The notes beneath the pieces are model-generated. The model ran no database searches, had not been told where the DNA came from, and saw nothing but the letters and a program-made list of their open reading frames with translations. 64,000 bases of DNA from Amoebidium appalachense. Its lineage: Eukaryota > Protista > Ichthyosporea. Made by a program: the position numbers and the translations under genes. The DNA lies in assembly GCA_963693365.1 (NCBI GenBank), contig CAVNZM010000008.1, positions 4,736,310 to 4,800,309 on the forward strand. Direction: 5' to 3'. Positions 147 through 63,314 of the stretch are shown piece by piece (the first letter of the stretch is position 1; every line of letters starts with the position of its first letter).

Positions 147-18322
<18,176 letters not shown>

Positions 18323-22091: not shown

Positions 22092-22640
22092 GGCCGTCAC
22101 ACATCCCTCACCCTGGCTCTGCCTTGTCGGTGCTCCAAAAAACACACAAATTCCCCTAGACTCGGCCTGCACATGGTCGCATTCACGTGCAGGTCACGTG
22201 ACACATGCACTGCCATACTGCCGTCTAGAGCAACAACCACGGCAGCATGTATACCGGCCCAGCACGAAATATACTTATCGGCAGCCCACTTCATGAACTC
22301 GCCCATTTTCTCTTTTTCATGTATAACCCTGCTTTTTTGTGAAATCACCCTTTTTGGCCTCCCGGTAGTGGATTTTGCAGGATTTGACTTCTTTGAGGTC
22401 CAAAAACCTCAAATTTTCCCCGGCCCCGGGGAGGGAGAATTCAAAAATTGCCCGCTCCTGATATGGTACCCGGGCCGTTTGAGCCGTTGCCGTAGGATTA
22501 GTACAACACGAGTTATTGGTTTTGCGACATGGGCACTTTGTCATGAAAAACGAAACAGTTAATTACTAAAACTTCAAAACTTCTAGGAAAACATAATAAG
22601 AACATCAATAGGCCGCACGAACTTCATGCTGCCTTCTTCC

Positions 22641-23122
22641 ACCATGACGAGCAGCACCAACACCCTGCTTGTCTAGTGTCCTCTACCATGCCGAGCAGCA
22701 CCAACACCCTGCTCTAGTGTCTTCTATCATGCCGAGCAGCACCAACACCCTGCTCTAGTGTCTTCTACCATGCCGAGCAGCACCAACACCCTGCTCTAGT
22801 CTTCTACCATGCCGAGCAGCACCAACACCCTGCTCTAGTGTCTTCTACCATGCCGAGCAGCACCAACACCCTGCTCTAGTGTCTTCTACCATGCCGAGCA
22901 GCACCAACACCCTGCTCTACTGTCTTCTACGTATACGATGCCGAGCAGCACCAACACCCTGCTCTAGTGTCTTCTACCATGCCGAGCAGCACCAACACGC
23001 TGCTCTAGTCTTCTATATGCCGAGCAGCACCAACACCCTGCTCTAGTGTCTTCTACCATGCCGAGCAGCACCAACACCTTGCAGTCTTCTACCACGCCGA
23101 GCAGCACCAACACCCTGCTCTA
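22641..23122. repeat. 41-bp minisatellite, 12 copies, plus one detached copy at about 23417-23468
   Basis: Unit ATGCCGAGCAGCACCAACACCCTGCTCTAGTGTCTTCTACC, with an internal inverted repeat GAGCAG/CTGCTC and no unique spacers. Confidence 0.95.
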
Positions 23123-23643: not shown

Positions 23644-23942
23644 CTTGTTCATACTTTACAGGCAATATATAGGGCTTGAATTCAGGCTCTTGAGTCGTGA
23701 CACTGAAAACACCGCCACAATCTCACTCATTCACGTTGTCTGTGCACTCTTTCAGTCACCCTGACAGACTGTTACACAGACTGACAGCCACATCTTCAAA
23801 AAAAGCAACAATAGCTGTATACGTACATTGTAGTGAATTGTCTGTCTGGCTGTAGAATTAGTACTACAGTAGAGTACTGTAGAGAGAGCCATATATCGCG
23901 GGAACTGAAACTGTCAAGGCACCCCGCACCACATGCATAATA

Positions 23943-24632
23943 ATGTGTCCCAAATTAGTCACCAAGTTACTCCTAGCGGCTGCCAGCTGCGCATTTTTCC
24001 TCTCCCCGACCATTCTAGCGGCAACCATTTCATCCTCTGAAAGCATCGCTTGTTTTTCAAAGTGTGAAAAGTTATACCTTGGAAGCCGCAGCACAGATCC
24101 CTCTTATGTACCGACCGATGACATTAAGAATGCCATAGCTGCGTGTGAGCGAGAGCTGTGCGGTGTGGGCGAATCAATACTACAGAAGTCTTGTAGGGAA
24201 ACGTGTACCTTGCGCCGCTCAAAGCAACCCGACCTAAACGACCCCAACTGTGAAAACGACTGTATTGAGACCGCTCAGATAATTGAGTGTTTCACAAAGT
24301 GTGAAAAGTTATACCTTGGAAGTAGGAGCACAGATCTTTCTTATGTACCGAACGATAGAGAGATGGAGGCCATTGCTGTGTGCGAACGAGAATCGTGCGG
24401 TGTTGGTGACTCGGCATTGGTGACGTCGTGTAAGGAATCGTGTTCAGACCAACGCGAAATTGACCAACCCAGCTGTGTACAAGACTGCGTTGCATACTCT
24501 GAAAGAATCAAATGCAACACAAAGTGTGAAAAGTTTATCCTTGGAAGCGACAGCACAAATTTTTCTTATGTACCAAACGAAAGAGAGACGGAGGCCATTG
24601 CTGCATGTGAGAGAGCGTCGTGCGGTGCTTAG
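23943..24632 (+). CDS. Intronless secreted cysteine-rich repeat protein, 229 aa, family not recognised
   Basis: Complex-sequence ORF from ATG to TAG. Hydrophobic N-terminus (KLLLAAASCAFFLSPTILA). Three copies of CxxKCEKxxLGSxSTxxSYVPxxxxxxAIAxCERxxCG alternate with two CxExC...CxxDC modules. Confidence 0.9.
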   Translation: MCPKLVTKLLLAAASCAFFLSPTILAATISSSESIACFSKCEKLYLGSRSTDPSYVPTDDIKNAIAACERELCGVGESILQKSCRETCTLRRSKQPDLNDPNCENDCIETAQIIECFTKCEKLYLGSRSTDLSYVPNDREMEAIAVCERESCGVGDSALVTSCKESCSDQREIDQPSCVQDCVAYSERIKCNTKCEKFILGSDSTNFSYVPNERETEAIAACERASCGA

Positions 24633-33941: not shown

Positions 33942-42747
<8,806 letters not shown>

Positions 42748-43224: not shown

Positions 43225-43422
43225 ATGAGTCGAGGGGCGGTTAGGACGACGCCAGATGGCAAGAAAGTGGTATGTTTCAGTCCTACTGCTTCTTTCGTCC
43301 CGTCCCTTCCTCTGACCTGTGCCTGTGTTTTTTTGCCTTTTTCCTGGCTTGTTGTGCTCCAGGGGCAATCTCTTTGTTGTGGAGTGTGTGGCTTGCTTTT
43401 ATAAGTGATGGTAATAGTGTTA

Positions 43423-43499
<77 letters not shown>

Positions 43500-44043
43500 G
43501 GGAGAGAGAGGGAGACAGAGGAAGGTGGGAGAGCGAGAGATTTGGAGGGAGGGAGGTAGGGAGGGAAGGAGGGAGGGAGTGAGGAGAGGGAATAGGAGGG
43601 ATAAGAGAGAGAGAGTGATAGAGAGAGATGGAAACGGAGAGAGGGAGAGGGACACAGTCCTTTGCTTATATGTGTCGAGGGAAGCAGAGAGTCAGGAAGG
43701 TGATGGGACACGGGTTGGGGGGTGGGTGGTTGCTGTTTGTGTGTGGTGGGGTTTGGGAGGTGGGGGTGGGGGCTGGGGAGGCGGGGGTAGGGTAGGGGGG
43801 GCTGGGTGGGTGTTTGTGTGTGTGTTTGGGGAGGGGGGGGGGGGGGGGGTTGGCAGGTGGGACATAGCTCGAGAATTCGTTTCGTATTATGGCAATCACG
43901 TTGCCATAATACTAACTATTCACACCCACAACCACACGCAACCACACGCACACGTGCGAACAAGCGCACACATGCGTATACACGCACGGAAAGCAGCATG
44001 TTCGTGCATGCCTGCGTCCAGCACGTCTGCGTATATTTGTGAC

Positions 44044-44101
<58 letters not shown>

Positions 44102-44217
44102 AACACAAACGCACAGAATTTGGAGCTGTTCGTGCTCACATACGGAGCGCTAGTAGCTCAGCTTCTGAAAGACACGGGGGATGAGGAGACAGTCAACAAA
44201 ACTCTCGACAGCATGTA

Positions 44218-44254
<37 letters not shown>

Positions 44255-44339
44255 GGGAAAGCATCACCCGTGCTCGTGGGCACACACTATGCACATGCGC
44301 AAGCACACGCACACCCACAGATGCGTGCATGCACACACA

Positions 44340-44422
<83 letters not shown>

Positions 44423-44649
44423 CACAAAACACACATGAGTACAGGCAAAGAGACATGCACACTTCAAAAATATACGGGAAGGGGGGGCGGGGAGGGGGAA
44501 GGATGCTTTCTCTCTCCCCATCCTTCCTTGCTGCATTCTCGGTGCTGTCTTTTTGCTGTCTCCTGGGTCGTGCATGTCATTGTGCTAGTGTGTGCCCTGT
44601 GTTGTTGTACACAATGTTTACCCCCCTCCAACCTCTCTCCAACCCTCCC

Positions 44650-44680
<31 letters not shown>

Positions 44681-45794
44681 CCCCTCCCTCCCTCCCTCCC
44701 TCTCTCTCTGTCTCTCCCTCTCCCCACGCCTTCCCTCCGCCCCTCCTTCCTCCCTCATTCCCTCCCCCAACCCTCCCCCCTCCCCGTCGTAAAAACATAC
44801 TTCATACCCTGTAACACATTTTTACCCCCCCCCCCCCCCCCCCCCCCCCCCCAACCGTTCCAGTGGATACAGCATGGGTACCCGACTAGCCGAAGACTTT
44901 CTTTCCCGTATTGCCATCAGCCGGTGTACAGAGTTCAAAGAGACGGCAGAGGTGCTAACAAAGGTGGGTCCCTGGATATATCTAGGACGGGATACCTTCT
45001 ATCTTCTTGTTCGATGTGGTTTGTTTGCACATCTGTAATATTTGGAAATTTCATCCGGGATAGTTTGGCATATTTGGTAATTTCATCCGGGATAGTTTGG
45101 CATATTCGGTAGTTTCATTCGGGATAGTTTGACATTCTCCTCATTCAAACCGTGGACTGCTCATTTAGGTCGGTTAACGTTATGTGATTAGTGATTTGAT
45201 GTTTTTTTCCATGTGGGTTGTGTTTTTTTTGTGATAGTTCATAATTTACCGTGGGCTATTTTGATGTGTTATACAAGAAGAGTTTTTTGTTTTCAATTGG
45301 GATAGTTAGATGGTTGCCCCCAAGAGATCTTGTTACTACCTCGGGATAGTTAGAGATTCGTGTGTGGAATATTGGTATGTTTCTTGGCGGACAATTTGAT
45401 TATCGTGATGGGAGCAGAGAGAGGGTGAGAGAGGGTGTGTGTGGGTGTGTGGGTATGTCTTATCTTTCCTCCTTGTCTTTTATCCTTATCTTTCCCTTTT
45501 TTTTTTCTTTTTTTTTTGGGGGGGGGGGGGGGGGCGGAGGGGGGGGGGGGATGTCGATTCCGGTTCTATAATCGTGCATTACTTCTGCTTTATTTAGGGG
45601 CCATTGATGCATGTCATACCCCCCCCCTCCCCCCTCCCGCCCACCGTTCCACTCTCCCCCCCCTCCCCTCCCTCGTTCCTTCTAGTGTATTGATGTCCGC
45701 AAAAGCAAGAATTGCTTTCTTGTAATCTGCGTTTGCAGCACACAGGGTGTGTGCGCGCGGACACACACACACACATAAACGCGCTATCACCAAT

Positions 45795-45830
<36 letters not shown>

Positions 45831-47242
45831 GGCACTGTTCAAGTGTCTTCTGCCTGCACACTTCTCATTTTTGTGACGTTTTTGTTGTTGCTCTTTGTTG
45901 TCTCCTCCATATCTCCAAGCCTCTAACGCATACATCCCCCCCCCCCCCCCCCCCCCCGGGGGCTGGCAGCAGGTCCTTCTCACTGCGCCTTTAACACTCC
46001 CGTGCTCTTGAGCTCCACCCCCCCATATCCCGTCCCGTGTTCCTTTTTGACTCTGTCCCACTTTCCCCTTCTTCGGTCCTCCCCGTCCCTGCCTCTGTTT
46101 CTCCCCTCCTTCCCCCCCCCCCCCCTCCCCCCCCCTCTCTCGGGTTCTGTGGATGACCTGGGCCCCCCCTGAGGATGGGCTCTGCTTATTATGCATACTC
46201 TTTATGTATGGTTTGCATTCTGCATCGTGTTGTCCGTTGTTCTTGTGTACTTCGTACTTTATGTCGCATTTAAACCCCCCTCTCTTTCTCTATATACATC
46301 CCCCCTTTGTAGAAGCCCGGCTTATGCTCTACTTCTCTGCTTGTTTTCTTAGTTTTTTGCCTGCTTGCAGTTTTTGTAGACTCTATTTTCTGATTGCTGC
46401 TCCTTGAACAACCCTGCTCGTCTTTGGCCAAGACGGGTAGACTCGCCTATTGCTGTTGAAACAAAGTATGGGTTGGGAACCACACGCGAAAGGTTAAAGA
46501 GTCGAAACCCATGCTTTTGTGGAGACATAGGAACCCCCCTGATGATGGGCTCTGTTCAAGTGTCTCCTGCTTGCACGCTTAATTAGTTTGATTTTGGATT
46601 TCCCACTTTTGTAACGTTTTGTTGATGCTCGTTGTTGTCTCCTCCATATTTCCTACCCTCTAACGCATACATCACCCCCCCCCTCCCCCCCCCCCCCCCC
46701 CCCCCCCTTCTCTCTCCCTTTTTCTCTCTTACCTCGTCTCTCGCTGTCTCTCTTTTTCTCTCTCTCTGCCCCCTCTCTGCCCTCCCCCCCCCCCCCCCCC
46801 CCCCCCCCGGGGAATAGGTCGAAACTCGGGTACTGTGGATGACGTGGGCCCCCCCTGAGGATGGGCTCTGCTTATTATGCATACTCTTTATGTATGGCTT
46901 GCATTCTGCATCGTGTTATCCGTTTGTTCTTGTGTACTTCGTACTTTTTGACGCATTCAAAACCCCCCCCCGACCCCCGCCCCCCTCCGCCTCTTCCATT
47001 TCTGTTCATTATTATTTCCTGCCTGTGTTTTTTGACTTTTGGACTTCGTCTTCCGTGTCTTTATCTTTGTATTATTCAATGACCTCGCATTCATGGACAC
47101 CACATACTGACGGACACATTACTCCCTCCTCCCCCTCTTCCCCCCTCCCCATTCCTCCCTCCCTTGCTCCCTCTCACTCCCTCCGTCCGTCCGTTCCCCC
47201 CCCCAACCCCCACCCCTCACTTCCTCTTTCTTTCCCTCTCCC

Positions 47243-47297
<55 letters not shown>

Positions 47298-48877
47298 ACA
47301 CACCAGACGTTATTCAGCATGTACATGGGCATACAACCACCAGTCACAAACTGGAGTGAAGACAGCAAAGAGTTCTCAGTTCTGCTCCCAGACAACCCCA
47401 TGAACGACTTTATCGAACTGCCCCCAAACCACACAAAGATTCTGTTTTCAAACGTCATTGCCGGAATATTGAGAGGCGGGTTGGAAGCGGTATAGAACCC
47501 CCCTCCTCCCCCCCCCCCCCCCCCCCTCCTCTCCCCCCCTTCCACTCCTCCTTCGCATCTTTCCCCCCCCCCCCCCCTCCCCCTCCCCCACCACCACCAC
47601 CACTACCACCACCCCCCCCCCCCCCCCCCTCCCCCTCCCCCCACCACCACCACCACTACCACCCCCCCCCCCAGACATCTTTACTTCCATGCAACCGGGC
47701 ATGGTTGCTCTGTGTCGTGCATCTGTAAGCACATACGCGTTTGTCGCTGCACTGCATTAGTTTGCACACACATCTTCACCGTTTTGCTCACCTTGCTTGC
47801 ATAAGCAACCCTGCTCGTCTTTGATCAAGACGGGTTGACCCACCCAAGTTCAGTTGATGCTGCTGTCTGAGTTGGAGCGTCGTATATACGCGGGCTAAGG
47901 GGTCGAAACTCAGACGCAATTGATGACTTGGGCCCTCCCTGAGGATGGGCTCTGCTTATGACGCATACTGTGCGCATGGCTGATGCTGCATACTTGAATG
48001 TTTGCCTTTGCATGTGTCCTGCATCATGCTTCTCATCGTCTATGCGTACTTCGTACTGTGTTCCGCATTCAAACCCCCCTGTCTTCTTTCAGAGGTGTCC
48101 TTTCAGGACAGACCACTGTGTGGAGACATCTTTACTTCCATGCAACCGGGCATGGTTGCTCTGTGTCGTGCATCTGTAAGCACATACGCGTTTGTCGCTG
48201 CACTGCATTAGTTTGCACACACATCTTCACCGTTTTGCTCACCTTGCTTGCATAAGCAACCCTGCTCGTCTTTGATCAAGACGGGTTGACCCACCCAAGT
48301 TCAGTTGATGCTGCTGTCTGAGTTGGAGCGTCGTATATACGCGGGCTAAGGGGTCGAAACTCAGACGCAATTGATGACTTGGGCCCTCCCTGAGGATGGG
48401 CTCTGCTTATGACGCATACTGTGCGCATGGCTGATGCTGCATACTTGAATGTTTGCCTTTGCATGTGTCCTGCATCATGCTTCTCATCGTCTATGCGTAC
48501 TTCGTACTGTGTTCCGCATTCAAACCCCCCCCCCCCCCCCTCCTCCCTCCCCCCGTTTTCTCCCTCTGGCTCCCCCCACCCCTTAAAAAGAAAACAATGA
48601 AAGAAACAAAAGGAAAAGAGTACAAATGATTAAGAAAGCGGTATTTGAATTGGGCTTCGTGTTCTTGGATGAGTGAGTTGAGACTCGGAAACTATGGATG
48701 GCTTGGGTATTGATTAGTAGATTTGCCTACTCCTTTTGCTTGTTCGTGTGTGTGTGTTCTGTCTGGTATATCTTCATGTGTGTCGTTGCTTTGAGTATGT
48801 TCTAGCACTATGTATCATTCGACCATTCGAACTCCCTCTCCCTTCCCCCCCCCCCTCCTCCCCCCCCCCCCCCCCCT

Positions 48878-48915
<38 letters not shown>

Positions 48916-48994
48916 AACCCCTCCCTTGAAGGATAGTTGGTACTACTTATGCCGCACACACATATATGTGGTTCGTTGTTCTACGCATCCCCCC

Positions 48995-49025
<31 letters not shown>

Positions 49026-49104
49026 AAAAAAAAAAAAAAAGAAAACACATACACACACACACACACACCCTTTCTGTGTCAGAAATTGGTCTCTTTTTTT
49101 CTTT

Positions 49105-49144
<40 letters not shown>

Positions 49145-49671
49145 TGTTTGTTTTTTGTTTTTGTTTTTTGGAGTTTGCCGAACGAACATCATGCAGATGC
49201 TTTCAATGGATATGCTCTATTCAGTATACCACAATGAGAGAACTATCTTGCCTTATTTCTCTGAAACCTCATTTGGTTCCTCGTGAAGCAGCCGATTGCC
49301 TGAACCCTTTTGCAGTACATTAGCGACCCTCTTTCTTTTTTGTCTCCTTTTTTCTTTCTTTTTTTTTTTCCCCTCTCCTCTCTCTCTTCCCCTTTGGGCT
49401 TCCTTGCTTGAATTTTTGTTGATTGTCAAGCCTCCCCCTCCAAATATCTCCTTTTTTTTTAATTTCGTTTTCTTCTCTTCTCTTTCCACCAATATCCCAA
49501 CTTTGCCGCCAAGTAACTATCTCACATGGTTTGAATTTTCCAATTTTTCAGATGCAGCTAAAATGCGATGTGTGGTTCGTGCAAGACGTACTCCGTGGGG
49601 ACAAGGAGACGGAAATCAGGCTGAGGCTCAAAGAAGTTCTTGATGACGAGGTACCCCCAAGCGACGACTGA
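43225..49671 (+). CDS. BET3: TRAPP complex subunit Bet3/TRAPPC3, 181 aa, 5 exons
   Basis: Exons 43225-43269, 44117-44214, 44864-44963, 47307-47489, 49552-49671 give KKVNLELFVLTYGALVAQLLKD...VNKTLDSIGYSMGTRLAEDFLSR...RCTEFKETAEVL...DNPMNDFIELP...FSNVIAGILRGGLEAMQ...FVQDVLRGDKETEIRLRL...EVPPSDD*. Confidence 0.97.
45038..45133. repeat. 32-bp tandem repeat, 3 copies
   Basis: atatttggtaatttcatccgggatagtttggc, three copies with few substitutions. Confidence 0.9.
45836..46970 (+). repeat. Alternating B-A-B-A tandem array of the hammerhead-like repeat family (BET3 intron 3)
   Basis: CTGA(G/T)GAtgggctct at 46169, 46539 and 46855. gtcGAAAC at 46501 and 46818. A-type bodies after 46169 and 46855 are near-identical, and B-type bodies at 45836 and 46552 are similar. 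Confidence 0.9.
46445..46553 (+). ncRNA. Candidate permuted hammerhead ribozyme, copy 1
   Basis: Stem III aaagtatgggt (46463-73) pairs with acccatgcttt (46507-17). GUU site ends at 46474. Stem I ggg/ccc. GAAA at 46504-07. CTGATGA at 46539-45. Stem II ggctct (46548-53) / agagtc (46498-503). Confidence 0.65.
47843..47953 (+). ncRNA. Candidate permuted hammerhead ribozyme, copy 2
   Basis: Stem III gtctgagt (47865-72) / actcagac (47908-15). GUU ends at 47873. Stem I ggag (47874-77) / ctcc (47935-38). GAAA at 47905-08. CTGAGGA at 47939-45. Stem II ggctct / ggggtc is rich in G-U pairs. Confidence 0.65.
48294..48404 (+). ncRNA. Candidate permuted hammerhead ribozyme, copy 3 (same sequence as copy 2)
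   Basis: Same motifs shifted by 451 nt: GUU ends at 48324, GAAA at 48356-59, CTGAGGA at 48390-96. Confidence 0.65.
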
Positions 49672-59200: not shown

Positions 59201-61638
59201 TGGTTAAAGTGGTGGTTGTGGTTGTGGTTGTGGTGGCTGCGGTGCTTTTCTTTTTTTTTTTTTTGTTTTTCTTTCTTTCTTCTTTTCTTTTTCTTTTTCC
59301 TTTTCTTTCCTTTCCTTTTTCTTTTTCTTTCTTTCTTTTTTTTTGTGGGGGGGAGGGGTCAGTTGTGTGTGTTGGGAAGCGGGGGGATGGGCAGGTGTGT
59401 GTGTTTAAAATGTTTTTTTTTTTTTTTTTTTTTGATCGTGTCTTTTAAAGGGGGTTTCGTTTAGGCCCATTAATTGTCCCCATTCCAGCACATCCGGGTC
59501 AAGCCATTTGCTCAGCATATAAATCATGATATGAACTGCAACCTTCTTCCTAACTCTTTATTAATGTTATTCCCTTCTTTCTTTCTTTCTTTTTCCTCTT
59601 TTCTTTTTCTCTTTAGTTGTATTATGGCGCATCTGAACCTTGCTGTGGGCAAAACGATGGTGCGCAGCTGATGCGCAGCACGCCGTTCAGATAGCTAGAA
59701 TTCCCTCTGACCCGACCCGGCTCGAAAGTCTAAAAGAAAACCCCTTTAACTTTTTGGGTCTCAAAGTCTTCGCTTCCATGTTTCCACCCGGTCCTTTAAT
59801 GCCCCCCCTCCTCCTCCCCCCCCCCCCCAAAAAAAAAAAAAAAAAAAAAAAAAAACAAAACAAACAAACCAGCCAATAAAACACAAACACCGGCCCATCC
59901 CCCGCTTCCCAAACACACACAACTGACCCCTCCCCCCCCCCCCCCCCCCCCCCTCTCCCCCCTCCCCCCCCCCCCCCAAAAAAACAATCACATCCGCATA
60001 AGATACTACTGGTACAGAGCCATGATCAGCCGGGGGGGAAGGTGTGAATGTGTGTGTGTGTGTGCGCGCGCGCGTGTATGTGTTGTGTGGTGGTGGTGGT
60101 GGTGGTGGTGGTGTGTGTGTGTGGGGGGGGGGGGGGGGGAGGGGGGGGAGGATATTTGCTTAACAGGGTGCAGCATCTGTAGCATATGTATTAGAAGGCA
60201 AAAAGAAAACACACAGCAGACACCAAAACACATGTGAGGCAGAGGACACTTAAATTCAGTGTATCTATTTTTGGGAGGCGGGAGACGACAGACAGGGAGA
60301 GGGAGAGGGAGAGTGAAGAAGGGAGGGGAGGAGCAAGAGGGAGAGGCCGAGGGAGAGAAGAAGGGGAGTGAGGGGGTCACGGTTTGGGTGTGAAGGTGGG
60401 AGGGGAAGGTGAGGAGGGGGACGTGGGGGGACTGTAGGGCAAGGGCAACGAGAGTGATGCAACCCCTTTAGCTTTGCACTCATAAATTGAAACCTTGCTA
60501 CACAGAGGGCATGAGAGAAATCTCCAACCTTACGTCAGTTGCAAACATCACCCGTGGGAAGCGAACAGACCAAAACAGGATCGGAGCTGCTGGTGCCAAT
60601 GACCGGGTTAAGGATGAAGAATGTAAACGTAAAAGGGCGGGATCTATGTGGTGCCAACGTAGTTAGGATAAGTCGAGTGTACGAGGTGATGCAGTGTTTT
60701 TGTAGATAGTGGTGGTGGTGTGGGTGTGGATGTGGGTGTGTGTGTTTAATGGAGCGGGGGGGGGGGGGGGGGGGAGGGGGGTGGGGGGGGAGGACGGACG
60801 GGTGGGGGTGGGTGGGTGGGTGGATGGGAGTGTGGGAACGAGAGTGGGTGGGTGGGAGGGACGGAGGAAGGGTGGGGGGAGGGGGGGGGGGGGAAGGTGC
60901 TGGCAGACAGAGCAGAATAAATGACACAAGGAAAAGATGCTGCTTATATGTAAGAATCTCCACGCACGTTTCTTGCTGTTGTTGGAGTTGTGGATGTGGA
61001 GATTTTGCGCTTGCAGGACGTGCTTTTTTCTGTCCGCAACAAAAGGGTCTCTGGTAAGGCAGCATAAAAGCTTAATACAGTAGGTGAATATTAGATCTCA
61101 CACCAGATTAAGATGATTTCCCTCTTACCCTCAGGGGATACTTGCAAAATTTGCATAGGTAGTTTTAGGACTTTTGTCTACCTTGCCTAAGAGCCGAAGC
61201 GGCTCACTTGCGCACTACATTAAACTTGCTGTACCCAACCTTCTAGCTCTTATTTTTCAAGGCTGACAAAACTTTCCTTCCGAAGCGACGTGATCACGCG
61301 CCAACTCATACCCTTATAGTTTATCATACGGCAGCTGCGGCCACAGTCGCACGTGGCAGGTACACAACGGTAAACAAAAATCTTTTTGAGTGTCACACAA
61401 TCAGTGGCAATAATTGCAAGGAATCGCCTTTAGATTCCGTTTAGAGCAACTATAGAACTATAGGCAGAGCTGGTAAAGGACAACATAATACTTATACCCA
61501 CAGGGGAACCTAGACATCACTGCAATCGTGGAAGGGTTTAAAGATTACCCCGCTCAGTTAACTGCAAAGTAGTTCAGGTCTCCTGGTTTGCTAAATACTT
61601 AAGTTTTGAGAAGCAAGTTATTCGCGTAAAACATTACC

Positions 61639-63314
<1,676 letters not shown>

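Follow-up and report, generated by a model that had tools for sequence, protein, structure and literature searches.

The TRAPPC3 introns carry hammerhead-like repeats

We analyzed a 64,000-nt stretch of DNA of Amoebidium appalachense (hereafter the window; contig CAVNZM010000008.1, positions 4,736,310 to 4,800,309, forward strand), which contains the five-exon gene of TRAPPC3/Bet3. The spliced TRAPPC3 product was identical to a protein from the transcriptome of the ichthyosporean Amoebidium parasiticum. Introns 3 and 4 of the gene harbor, on the sense strand, full copies of a high-copy non-coding repeat of Amoebidium (Ichthyosporea), and this repeat carries a hammerhead-like motif. We consider it likely that the repeat acts as a ribozyme that cleaves itself and belongs to a non-autonomous retroelement of Penelope-like (retrozyme) type. 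In its unit, the stem II strand comes first, followed by the cleavage site, GAAA and CUGAnGA. Coordinates of all features are given in Table 1.

Hammerhead core and block order

Block names follow Eckert et al. 2023: S is the cleavage-site strand, G the GAAA strand and C the CUGAnGA strand. The sequence-only reading, made before our analysis, had proposed three copies with all three hammerhead strands, and these were found in place. With the core defined as in PMC3088659, C3 U4 G5 A6 N7 G8 A9, G12 A13 A14 A15.1 and U16.1 H17 were complete in 3/3 full copies. C3 of CUGAUGA, C11.1 of C-GAAA and H17 of GUU were located at 46539, 46503 and 46474 in copy 1; the corresponding positions were 47939 (CUGAGGA), 47904 and 47873 in copy 2, and 48390 (CUGAGGA), 48355 and 48324 in copy 3. 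Stems I, II and III directly flanked the core (1.1-2.1, G10.1-C11.1, A15.1-U16.1). In the two sequence variants, stem III had 10 and 8 bp plus A15.1-U16.1 and stem I had 3 and 4 bp; the core and these stems match the hammerhead register exactly. GUU was also in exact register at the cut sites predicted earlier, after 46474, 47873 and 48324. Copies 2 and 3 were identical over 407 nt, which leaves two independent variants, as had been cautioned.

The whole window was scanned on both strands for all six block orders with a relaxed descriptor (full core and, in register, stem I of at least 3 bp, stem II of at least 4 bp and stem III of at least 6 bp). The scan revealed three matches, every one in the order S-G-C, whereas 1350 block-wise dinucleotide shuffles of the window gave no match in any order; a chance origin of the three copies is therefore excluded. 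The orders of types I, II and III (CGS, GSC and SCG) had no descriptor match in the window with gaps of up to 60 nt. The proposal of a pseudoknotted strand order that is not a circular permutation of the standard types was thus borne out. Comparison of the window with Rfam returned nothing at the gathering threshold and no ribozyme at E<=10, in agreement with the expectation that standard models would miss the motif.

The stem II partner of block G lies upstream

The block G strand had a perfect Watson-Crick partner, starting with G10.1 and located directly upstream of the stem III arm, in 3/3 copies. GACUC at 46440 pairs with GAGUC at 46499-46503 in copy 1, and GACCC at 47837 and 48288 pairs with GGGUC in copies 2 and 3. 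The upstream GACCC was the sole perfect block G partner within 250 nt in copies 2 and 3, and copy 1 had a second perfect partner at 46379. In a further subfamily, B, loose contig ends read by eye gave GACCU/AGGUC in sequencing run X9 and GACCC/GGGUC in runs X1 and X3. The bases that follow A9 form two helices, one with CCC and the other with an 8-bp strand located further upstream (CUUGAACA/UGUUCAAG, CAUAAGCA/UGCUUAUG).

RNAalifold, run unprompted on copies 1 and 2, recovered the outer closing helix, a hairpin before G10.1 and the upstream stem II. The 25 pairs of these three helices were 100% paired with four double-sided changes between the two copies, against 32-44% paired in slid registers. 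Three compensatory changes were located in the outer closing helix after CUGAnGA, and manual registers added one double-sided change in stem I, two in stem III and two in the helix that returns from the stem III arm; covariation of subfamily C, to which copy 1 belongs, was taken from the window copies alone. In conditional shuffles, which were designed post hoc and in which the two copies are homologous, both upstream partners arose in 28 and 17 of 20,000 trials. Because the covarying stem II partner of block G lies upstream, we read the core as split between A9 and G10.1, G10.1 lying about 100 nt upstream of A9. The catalytic strand is thus probably opened at this link, giving the order stem II strand, S, G and CUGAnGA. 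At the level of sequence and covariation, the motif is a hammerhead of the class of types CSG and SGC, opened between A9 and G10.1, with the outer helix and the hairpin predicted to join the ends. An A9-G10.1 link of 1-2 nt, which the sequence-only reading had treated as an insertion after A9, holds solely under that reading's weaker pairing and is probably wrong.

Closing helices and the kink-turn-like arm

The earlier location of the motif was right in that the three copies are there, and its start at 46445 was about 40 nt too late, since the domain begins at 46403. The hairpin before G10.1 had 10 bp in copy 1 and 9 bp in copy 2 (47813-47835), with pair probabilities of 0.98 and 0.87 in separate folding runs. 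A small linker hairpin that had been suggested to bridge stems I and II was weak (mean pair probability about 0.2).

Stem III extends via a 3-nt bulge (GUU, GUU and AGU) and tandem G.A pairs into the return helix, which is joined to stem II through 1 nt and to stem I through 2-4 nt. The consensus of kink turns (K-turns) comprises a 3-nt bulge with a purine first and U last, tandem G.A/A.G pairs and flanking helices. These features were present in copies 1 and 2 by the pair table and in subfamily B by eye. Sequence and covariation thus indicate that a K-turn-like motif extends stem III; the kink itself is a prediction.

With the pseudoknot strands held open, copies 1 and 2 both folded into the proposed frame at a cost of approximately 10 kcal/mol. 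Stacking of stems I and II returned approximately 19 kcal/mol in copy 2 and 16 kcal/mol in copy 1, loop entropy uncounted in both and the stem II part of copy 1 being a manual nearest-neighbour sum. Pair probabilities in copy 2 were 0.98 for the outer helix and 0.99 for stem III. In copy 1, an alternative hairpin, GGAGACAU/GUGUCUCC (46521-46568), rivals the K-turn arm and covaries in the fragment at 37592; it possibly acts as a switch. Its assignment to the published helix 'I' of type SGC was rejected because subfamily A offers no good match for this hairpin, which we treat as a competing fold.

Table 1. Positions of the repeat copies, predicted ribozyme parts and host gene in the window
Feature	Position	Strand	Basis or remark
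Host gene TRAPPC3/Bet3, five exons	43225..49671	+	intron 3, 44964-47306; intron 4, 47490-49551
Copy 1 (subfamily C), whole predicted ribozyme domain	46403..46560	+	RNAalifold, pair table, covariation
Copy 1, outer helix, 8 bp	46403-46410 with 46553-46560	+	RNAalifold, pair table
Copy 1, inner closing helix, 3 bp	46412-46414 with 46547-46549	+	RNAalifold, pair table
Copy 1, conserved hairpin directly before G10.1, 10 bp	46415..46439	+	
Copy 1, upstream stem II strand GACUC	46440..46444	+	G10.1 = 46440; pairs with GAGUC 46499-46503
Copy 1, stem III, K-turn-like motif and return helix	46446..46531	+	pair table
Copy 1, return helix, one mismatch, one bulge	46446-46454 with 46524-46531	+	pair table
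Copy 1, K-turn-like motif	bulge 46455-46457; GA 46458-46459 with GA 46522-46523	+	pair table
Copy 1, stem III	46461-46473 with 46507-46520	+	pair table
Copy 1, block S	46472..46477	+	descriptor; GUU, predicted cut after 46474; stem I strand GGG pairs with 46536-46538
Copy 1, block G	46499..46509	+	descriptor; stem II 3' strand, GAAA, start of stem III
Copy 1, stem I strand and CUGAUGA (C3-A9)	46536..46545	+	sequence, descriptor
Copy 2, predicted ribozyme domain	47800..47960	+	predicted cut after 47873; CUGAGGA 47939-47945
Copy 2, outer helix	47800-47807 with 47953-47960	+	
Copy 2, upstream stem II	47837-47841 with 47900-47904	+	G10.1 = 47837
Copy 2, K-turn-like motif	47853-47858 / 47921-47923	+	
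Copy 3, predicted ribozyme domain	48251..48411	+	same as copy 2; G10.1 = 48288; predicted cut after 48324
Subfamily A, full unit, 451 bp, non-coding	47673..48123	+	internal C6 run 48074-48080
Subfamily A, second head-to-tail unit, 407 bp	48124..48530	+	same as first unit; ends in genomic C run
Subfamily C, copy carrying copy 1	46306..46675	+	ends in C run; TRAPPC3 intron 3; 5' boundary by eye
Subfamily B, 5'-truncated copy	46808..46967	+	has block G, return-helix strand and CUGAGGA; lacks block S and upstream strand
Subfamily B, 5'-truncated copy	46139..46282	+	repeat comparison
Subfamily C, 3'-end fragment	45862..45945	+	repeat comparison
Stack of three 5'-truncated copies (A, C, B)	37285..37752	-	each with terminal C run

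Repeat family

Twelve fragments of the family were delimited in the 64 kb and assigned to at least three subfamilies (A, B and C). All 12 end in a C run, and the full core was present in three. Although identity between subfamilies A and C is no more than about 62%, both keep all core bases and helices. Copies 2 and 3 sit in a head-to-tail repeat of subfamily A with a period of 451 (1.9 units, identical over 407 nt). A 44-nt spacer with two small hairpins (48080-48123) follows the C run solely between the tandem units and resembles the 'tail' of 30-40 bp in insertions of Penelope-like elements. The repeat is thus a short non-coding unit that occurs both in tandem and dispersed, with one ribozyme motif per unit, as in retrozymes. 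Readings of the element as a tRNA-derived short interspersed element (SINE), a C/D small nucleolar RNA or a twister ribozyme were rejected on the basis of Rfam, ARAGORN and inspection by eye.

Contig records from four sequencing runs were placed on the A unit (10,030 from X1, 11,953 from X3, 12 from X9 and 19 from X13). X1 is possibly the source of the window DNA and hence not independent, and contig depth does not equal copy number. A search across sequencing runs listed no RNA run with the repeat; X9 may be RNA, and we do not count it as a sign of expression. Depth climbed toward the 3' part of the unit, with truncated copies stacked behind C runs, and contigs from three runs (X3, X9 and X13) spanned the unit junction. 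No core base varied among the variants listed. The only two multi-allelic sites among them, 47842 and 47878, lie immediately past stems II and I, at the first unpaired position. The A. appalachense genome is given as 202 Mb in bioRxiv 10.1101/2024.01.08.574619; scaled to this size, the density in the window would correspond to tens of thousands of fragments.

The family fragments at 4116-10985 (+), 37285-37752 (-) and 45862-48530 (+) all appear to be sense to their host genes. The introns of TRAPPC3 contained 17 C runs and four G runs on the sense strand, and the polarity of a C-run target may explain the sense orientation of the fragments.

Comparison with known hammerheads and retroelements

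The order had been thought undescribed, and it turned out to be that of type SGC, which cleaves in vitro and was found in metatranscriptomes only (Eckert et al. 2023, PMC10085705). That study states that, one doubtful GCS case aside, genomes of known organisms yielded no such RNA. Type SGC (HRIMA-1 and a variant) shares with the Amoebidium copies the order of cleavage site, GAAA and CUGAnGA, the full core, the GUCGAAA/GAC stem II, pseudoknotted stems, a short S-to-G linker and, in the alignment of the variant, GUU. The published SGC forms have an unbroken block C in a closing hairpin (helix 'I'), a stem I of about 5-7 bp and linkers of about 3 nt. In contrast, the Amoebidium copies have an upstream stem II strand, the split at A9/G10.1, a stem I of 3-4 bp, a linker of 21-22 nt and a K-turn-like arm, and they are located in nuclear DNA. 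The RNAMotif pattern of that study (stem I of at least 4 bp, S-G linker of at most 8 nt, III-I gap of at most 15 nt, CUGAUGA(U)G) cannot find these copies because its limits are exceeded by the linker and the split block C. Type CSG, represented by two metagenome sequences (PMC10085705), belongs to the same cyclic class: the Amoebidium form equals CSG cut at A9/G10.1 with the first part moved to the 3' end, whereas CSG has a whole block C and no K-turn arm. A search of a library that lacked most subscription papers retrieved Eckert et al. 2023 as the only paper on type SGC. It returned no report of hammerheads with a split core or a K-turn, of permuted hammerheads within Penelope-like elements, or of ribozymes from Amoebidium.

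In animals, non-long terminal repeat (non-LTR) retrozymes consist of short units in tandem, each bearing a single type I hammerhead; they are cut to monomers, circularized by RtcB in vitro and probably mobilized by Penelope-like elements (Cervera and de la Pena 2020, PMC7229834; Li et al. 2026, bioRxiv 10.64898/2026.07.22.740005). They likewise consist of non-coding units of 150-450 bp with one hammerhead each, in tandem and dispersed copies. Unlike them, the Amoebidium repeat has no hammerhead of standard order in the window; it has the non-circular split form, a C-run target and mostly 5'-truncated copies.

Mobility has a parallel in the Penelope-like elements Naiad and Chlamys (Craig et al. 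2021, PMC8557442). Chlamys elements target (C)n and (CA)n and form 5'-truncated and partial tandem copies; the (C)n ends, 5' truncation and partial tandem of the Amoebidium repeat match this pattern. Naiad and Chlamys encode a GIY-YIG endonuclease and a reverse transcriptase (RT), whereas the repeat unit itself has no open reading frame (ORF) for either. That study describes these elements as lacking canonical hammerheads apart from eight 'half core' cases, and suggests that hammerheads may be dispensable; its main text mentions no ichthyosporean.

We read Naiad consensus sequences by eye in passages of the supplement retrieved by selected 8-9-mer searches, which miss matches across line breaks and provide no denominator; nothing was computed. 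Eight Naiad passages (PMC8557442 File S5, parts 13-16) appeared to contain type-CSG hammerheads in complete form; their stems I and II measure 4-6 bp, the closing helix measures 8-13 bp, and one has a GUU site. They correspond to eight nematode Naiads, five by their position directly before a named header and three by file order alone. Two octopus Naiad ends displayed a split wiring like that of Amoebidium: stem II, with its strand upstream, and stem I each have 6 bp, a hairpin precedes G10.1, and a K-turn and CUGAUGA-UGG are present. Like these ends, the spider and ostracod passages come from supplement parts 17-19 and 24; they contained partial or decayed S-G-C arrangements, the spider one with a long hairpin linker, and the Chlamys passages retrieved in the same way contained no such motif. 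In a Physarum consensus end (supplement part 51), a minimal type I hammerhead whose loop 2 is long can be read; the hammerhead rows consulted in that paper do not include it.

Proposed mobility and alternative explanations

In the proposed cycle, the fold would reproduce the hammerhead active site and cut after GUU, so that tandem transcripts cut at 47873 and 48324 would yield 451-nt monomers. The long stem III arm would keep the two ends of each monomer close, and ligation could then circularize it. An RT/GIY-YIG enzyme of Penelope-like type, encoded elsewhere, would mobilize the repeat: the C run of the RNA would anneal to the G strand of a (C)n tract, and priming from this strand would account for the common 3' ends. 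Reverse transcription would mostly stop early, leaving truncated copies, and would sometimes pass one unit, giving the 1.9-unit copy. Since this copy reads through a cut site, its template would have been circular or an uncut multimer.

Several points weigh against a ribozyme of this kind. The support consists of sequence and covariation, and cleavage, circles and enzyme are proposed. Pfam detected no RT or GIY-YIG endonuclease in 129 window ORFs selected by an entropy filter, and the enzymatic partner is therefore postulated outside them. Because only two full independent sequences were aligned, 42/500 shuffles reached the covariation score, and the two halves of stem II in subfamily B come from separate contigs, which we take to be linked. 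Free folds shut the core in small local hairpins, and the competing downstream hairpin of copy 1 cut the probability of the outer helix to 0.14. By a rough estimate, the 1-nt link from stem II to the 9-bp return helix is tight, with 14-16 bp of stem III up to the kink; the return helix may open in part, or the strand may be supplied by the next unit. Stem I has merely 3-4 bp, and GUU is a slower cleavage triplet. The 451-nt monomer circle folded moderately better than shuffles (z -2.0, 5/200). Variant density in the domain (6 sites/161 nt) was not clearly below that outside (about 17/343, manual count), and no pile-up of 5' ends was seen at the cut site among the best-supported loose ends and joints listed. 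Eckert et al. 2023 assume that block C cannot tolerate an interruption beyond 1-2 nt. No tested split-core hammerhead was found in the literature searched, and the available parts of PMC13725137, PMC10162972 and PMC3088659 add no such form.

The tight link would vanish if the motif were active only in tandem or dimeric RNA, with the upstream stem II strand and the outer helix coming from the next unit (a true SGC that carries a large insertion after A9), or neighbouring units forming a conventional double hammerhead, and with the K-turn arm keeping monomers and circles off. We regard this as unlikely, although head-to-tail units are real, their junction is bridged by contigs, and small Penelope hammerheads cleave as dimers. 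It would also render intronic sense monomers harmless, in keeping with the normal spliced product of the host gene. However, the strong local helices of copy 2 would fold first, the next unit holds the partner strand some 340 nt away, and no standard block order was found locally. Another possibility is the contiguous type-SGC hammerhead of the sequence-only reading, in which GGCUCU, after a UG insertion, forms the active stem II. This strand can indeed pair, with 6/6 pairs possible in copies 1-3 and similar stacking (-10.1 and -9.2 kcal/mol), and published SGC ribozymes often have U after A9 (PMC10085705). As a stem II it is nevertheless very unlikely: it showed no double-sided changes, whereas the upstream GAC strand compensates in three subfamilies. 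The GGCUCU strand is invariant while its partner varies, subfamily B retains four pairs by eye, and the same bases serve the covarying closing helices. In the octopus Naiads, the equivalent pairing amounts to just 2 bp by eye.

The fold could also be conserved without being, or still being, catalytic, as a decayed ribozyme or a protein-binding structure (K-turn, RT docking) of a SINE-like repeat. The short stem I, the GUU triplet, the split core and the competing folds are compatible with this, as are the 9/12 window fragments without the full core and the sense intronic copies alongside a spliced host product. We nonetheless find it quite improbable, because about 38% divergence has left every core position and three stems in register, and it is difficult to account for this without catalysis. 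ARAGORN found no tRNA in the element, GUCGAAAC is by eye a T-loop look-alike without a conserved T stem, and the words resembling box C/D are accounted for by the core and the K-turn. An endogenized viroid-like circular RNA, as in published SGC, or mobilization by a non-Penelope enzyme (HERO-type non-LTR) is highly improbable. The published motifs come from viroid-like metatranscriptome contigs (PMC10085705) and the unit size would suit such an RNA, but neither Rfam nor the descriptor found a ribozyme on the opposite strand, the minus strand folded no better than shuffles (z -1.3), and C-run targeting with partial tandems matches Chlamys/Naiad. Scans with family patterns produced only chance matches in coding sequence, or none. 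Metagenomes gave one locus, in an integrase ORF, viral contigs nine and then zero, and prokaryote genomes four, all chance matches without stem III. A split-core ribozyme in a non-autonomous Penelope-like element is the reading that we prefer.

Other features of the window

A T run follows the tRNA-Ser(GCT) that ARAGORN called at 5170-5243 (+). This tRNA has no long variable arm and is possibly a SINE derived from a tRNA. Exons of a UPF3-like gene are located at 39296-41654 (-), those of a WD40 gene, which we take to be LST8-like, at 61630-61750 (+), and a multi-exon gene without a clear family at 9292-9894 (+). Minisatellites occur at 7332-7783 and 22635-23122 (periods 28 and 41; 16 and 12 copies). 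An intronless ORF of 249 aa at 23883-24632 (+) is cysteine-rich, with a likely signal peptide, three internal repeats and no Pfam match.

Implications for hammerhead ribozymes and their retroelements

Non-circular hammerheads have so far been represented by environmental sequence only, together with one doubtful bacterial case, and block C was assumed to be unsplittable. If true, the presence of a functional split-core hammerhead in chromosomes, in thousands of copies, would overturn both assumptions and provide a new scaffold for ribozyme engineering. We tentatively propose that hammerhead catalysis can proceed when two stacked helices take the place of the A9-G10.1 link and stems I and II are braced by a K-turn arm, that the split form and CSG are the 'missing' ribozymes of the Naiad/Chlamys branch and of its retrozymes, and that the wiring shared by an ichthyosporean and octopus predates animals or moved between them. 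Judging from the supplement passages described above, Naiad/Chlamys hammerheads seem to be present but invisible to standard descriptors, which would make the dispensability question of Craig et al. 2021 testable.

The finding would extend retrozyme-like elements to a unicellular relative of animals, and one may ask how genes cope with ribozymes on the sense strand of their introns. If the prediction is true, the ribozyme cuts its own RNA and thereby helps the repeat to spread, placing a rare hammerhead wiring in ordinary chromosomes.

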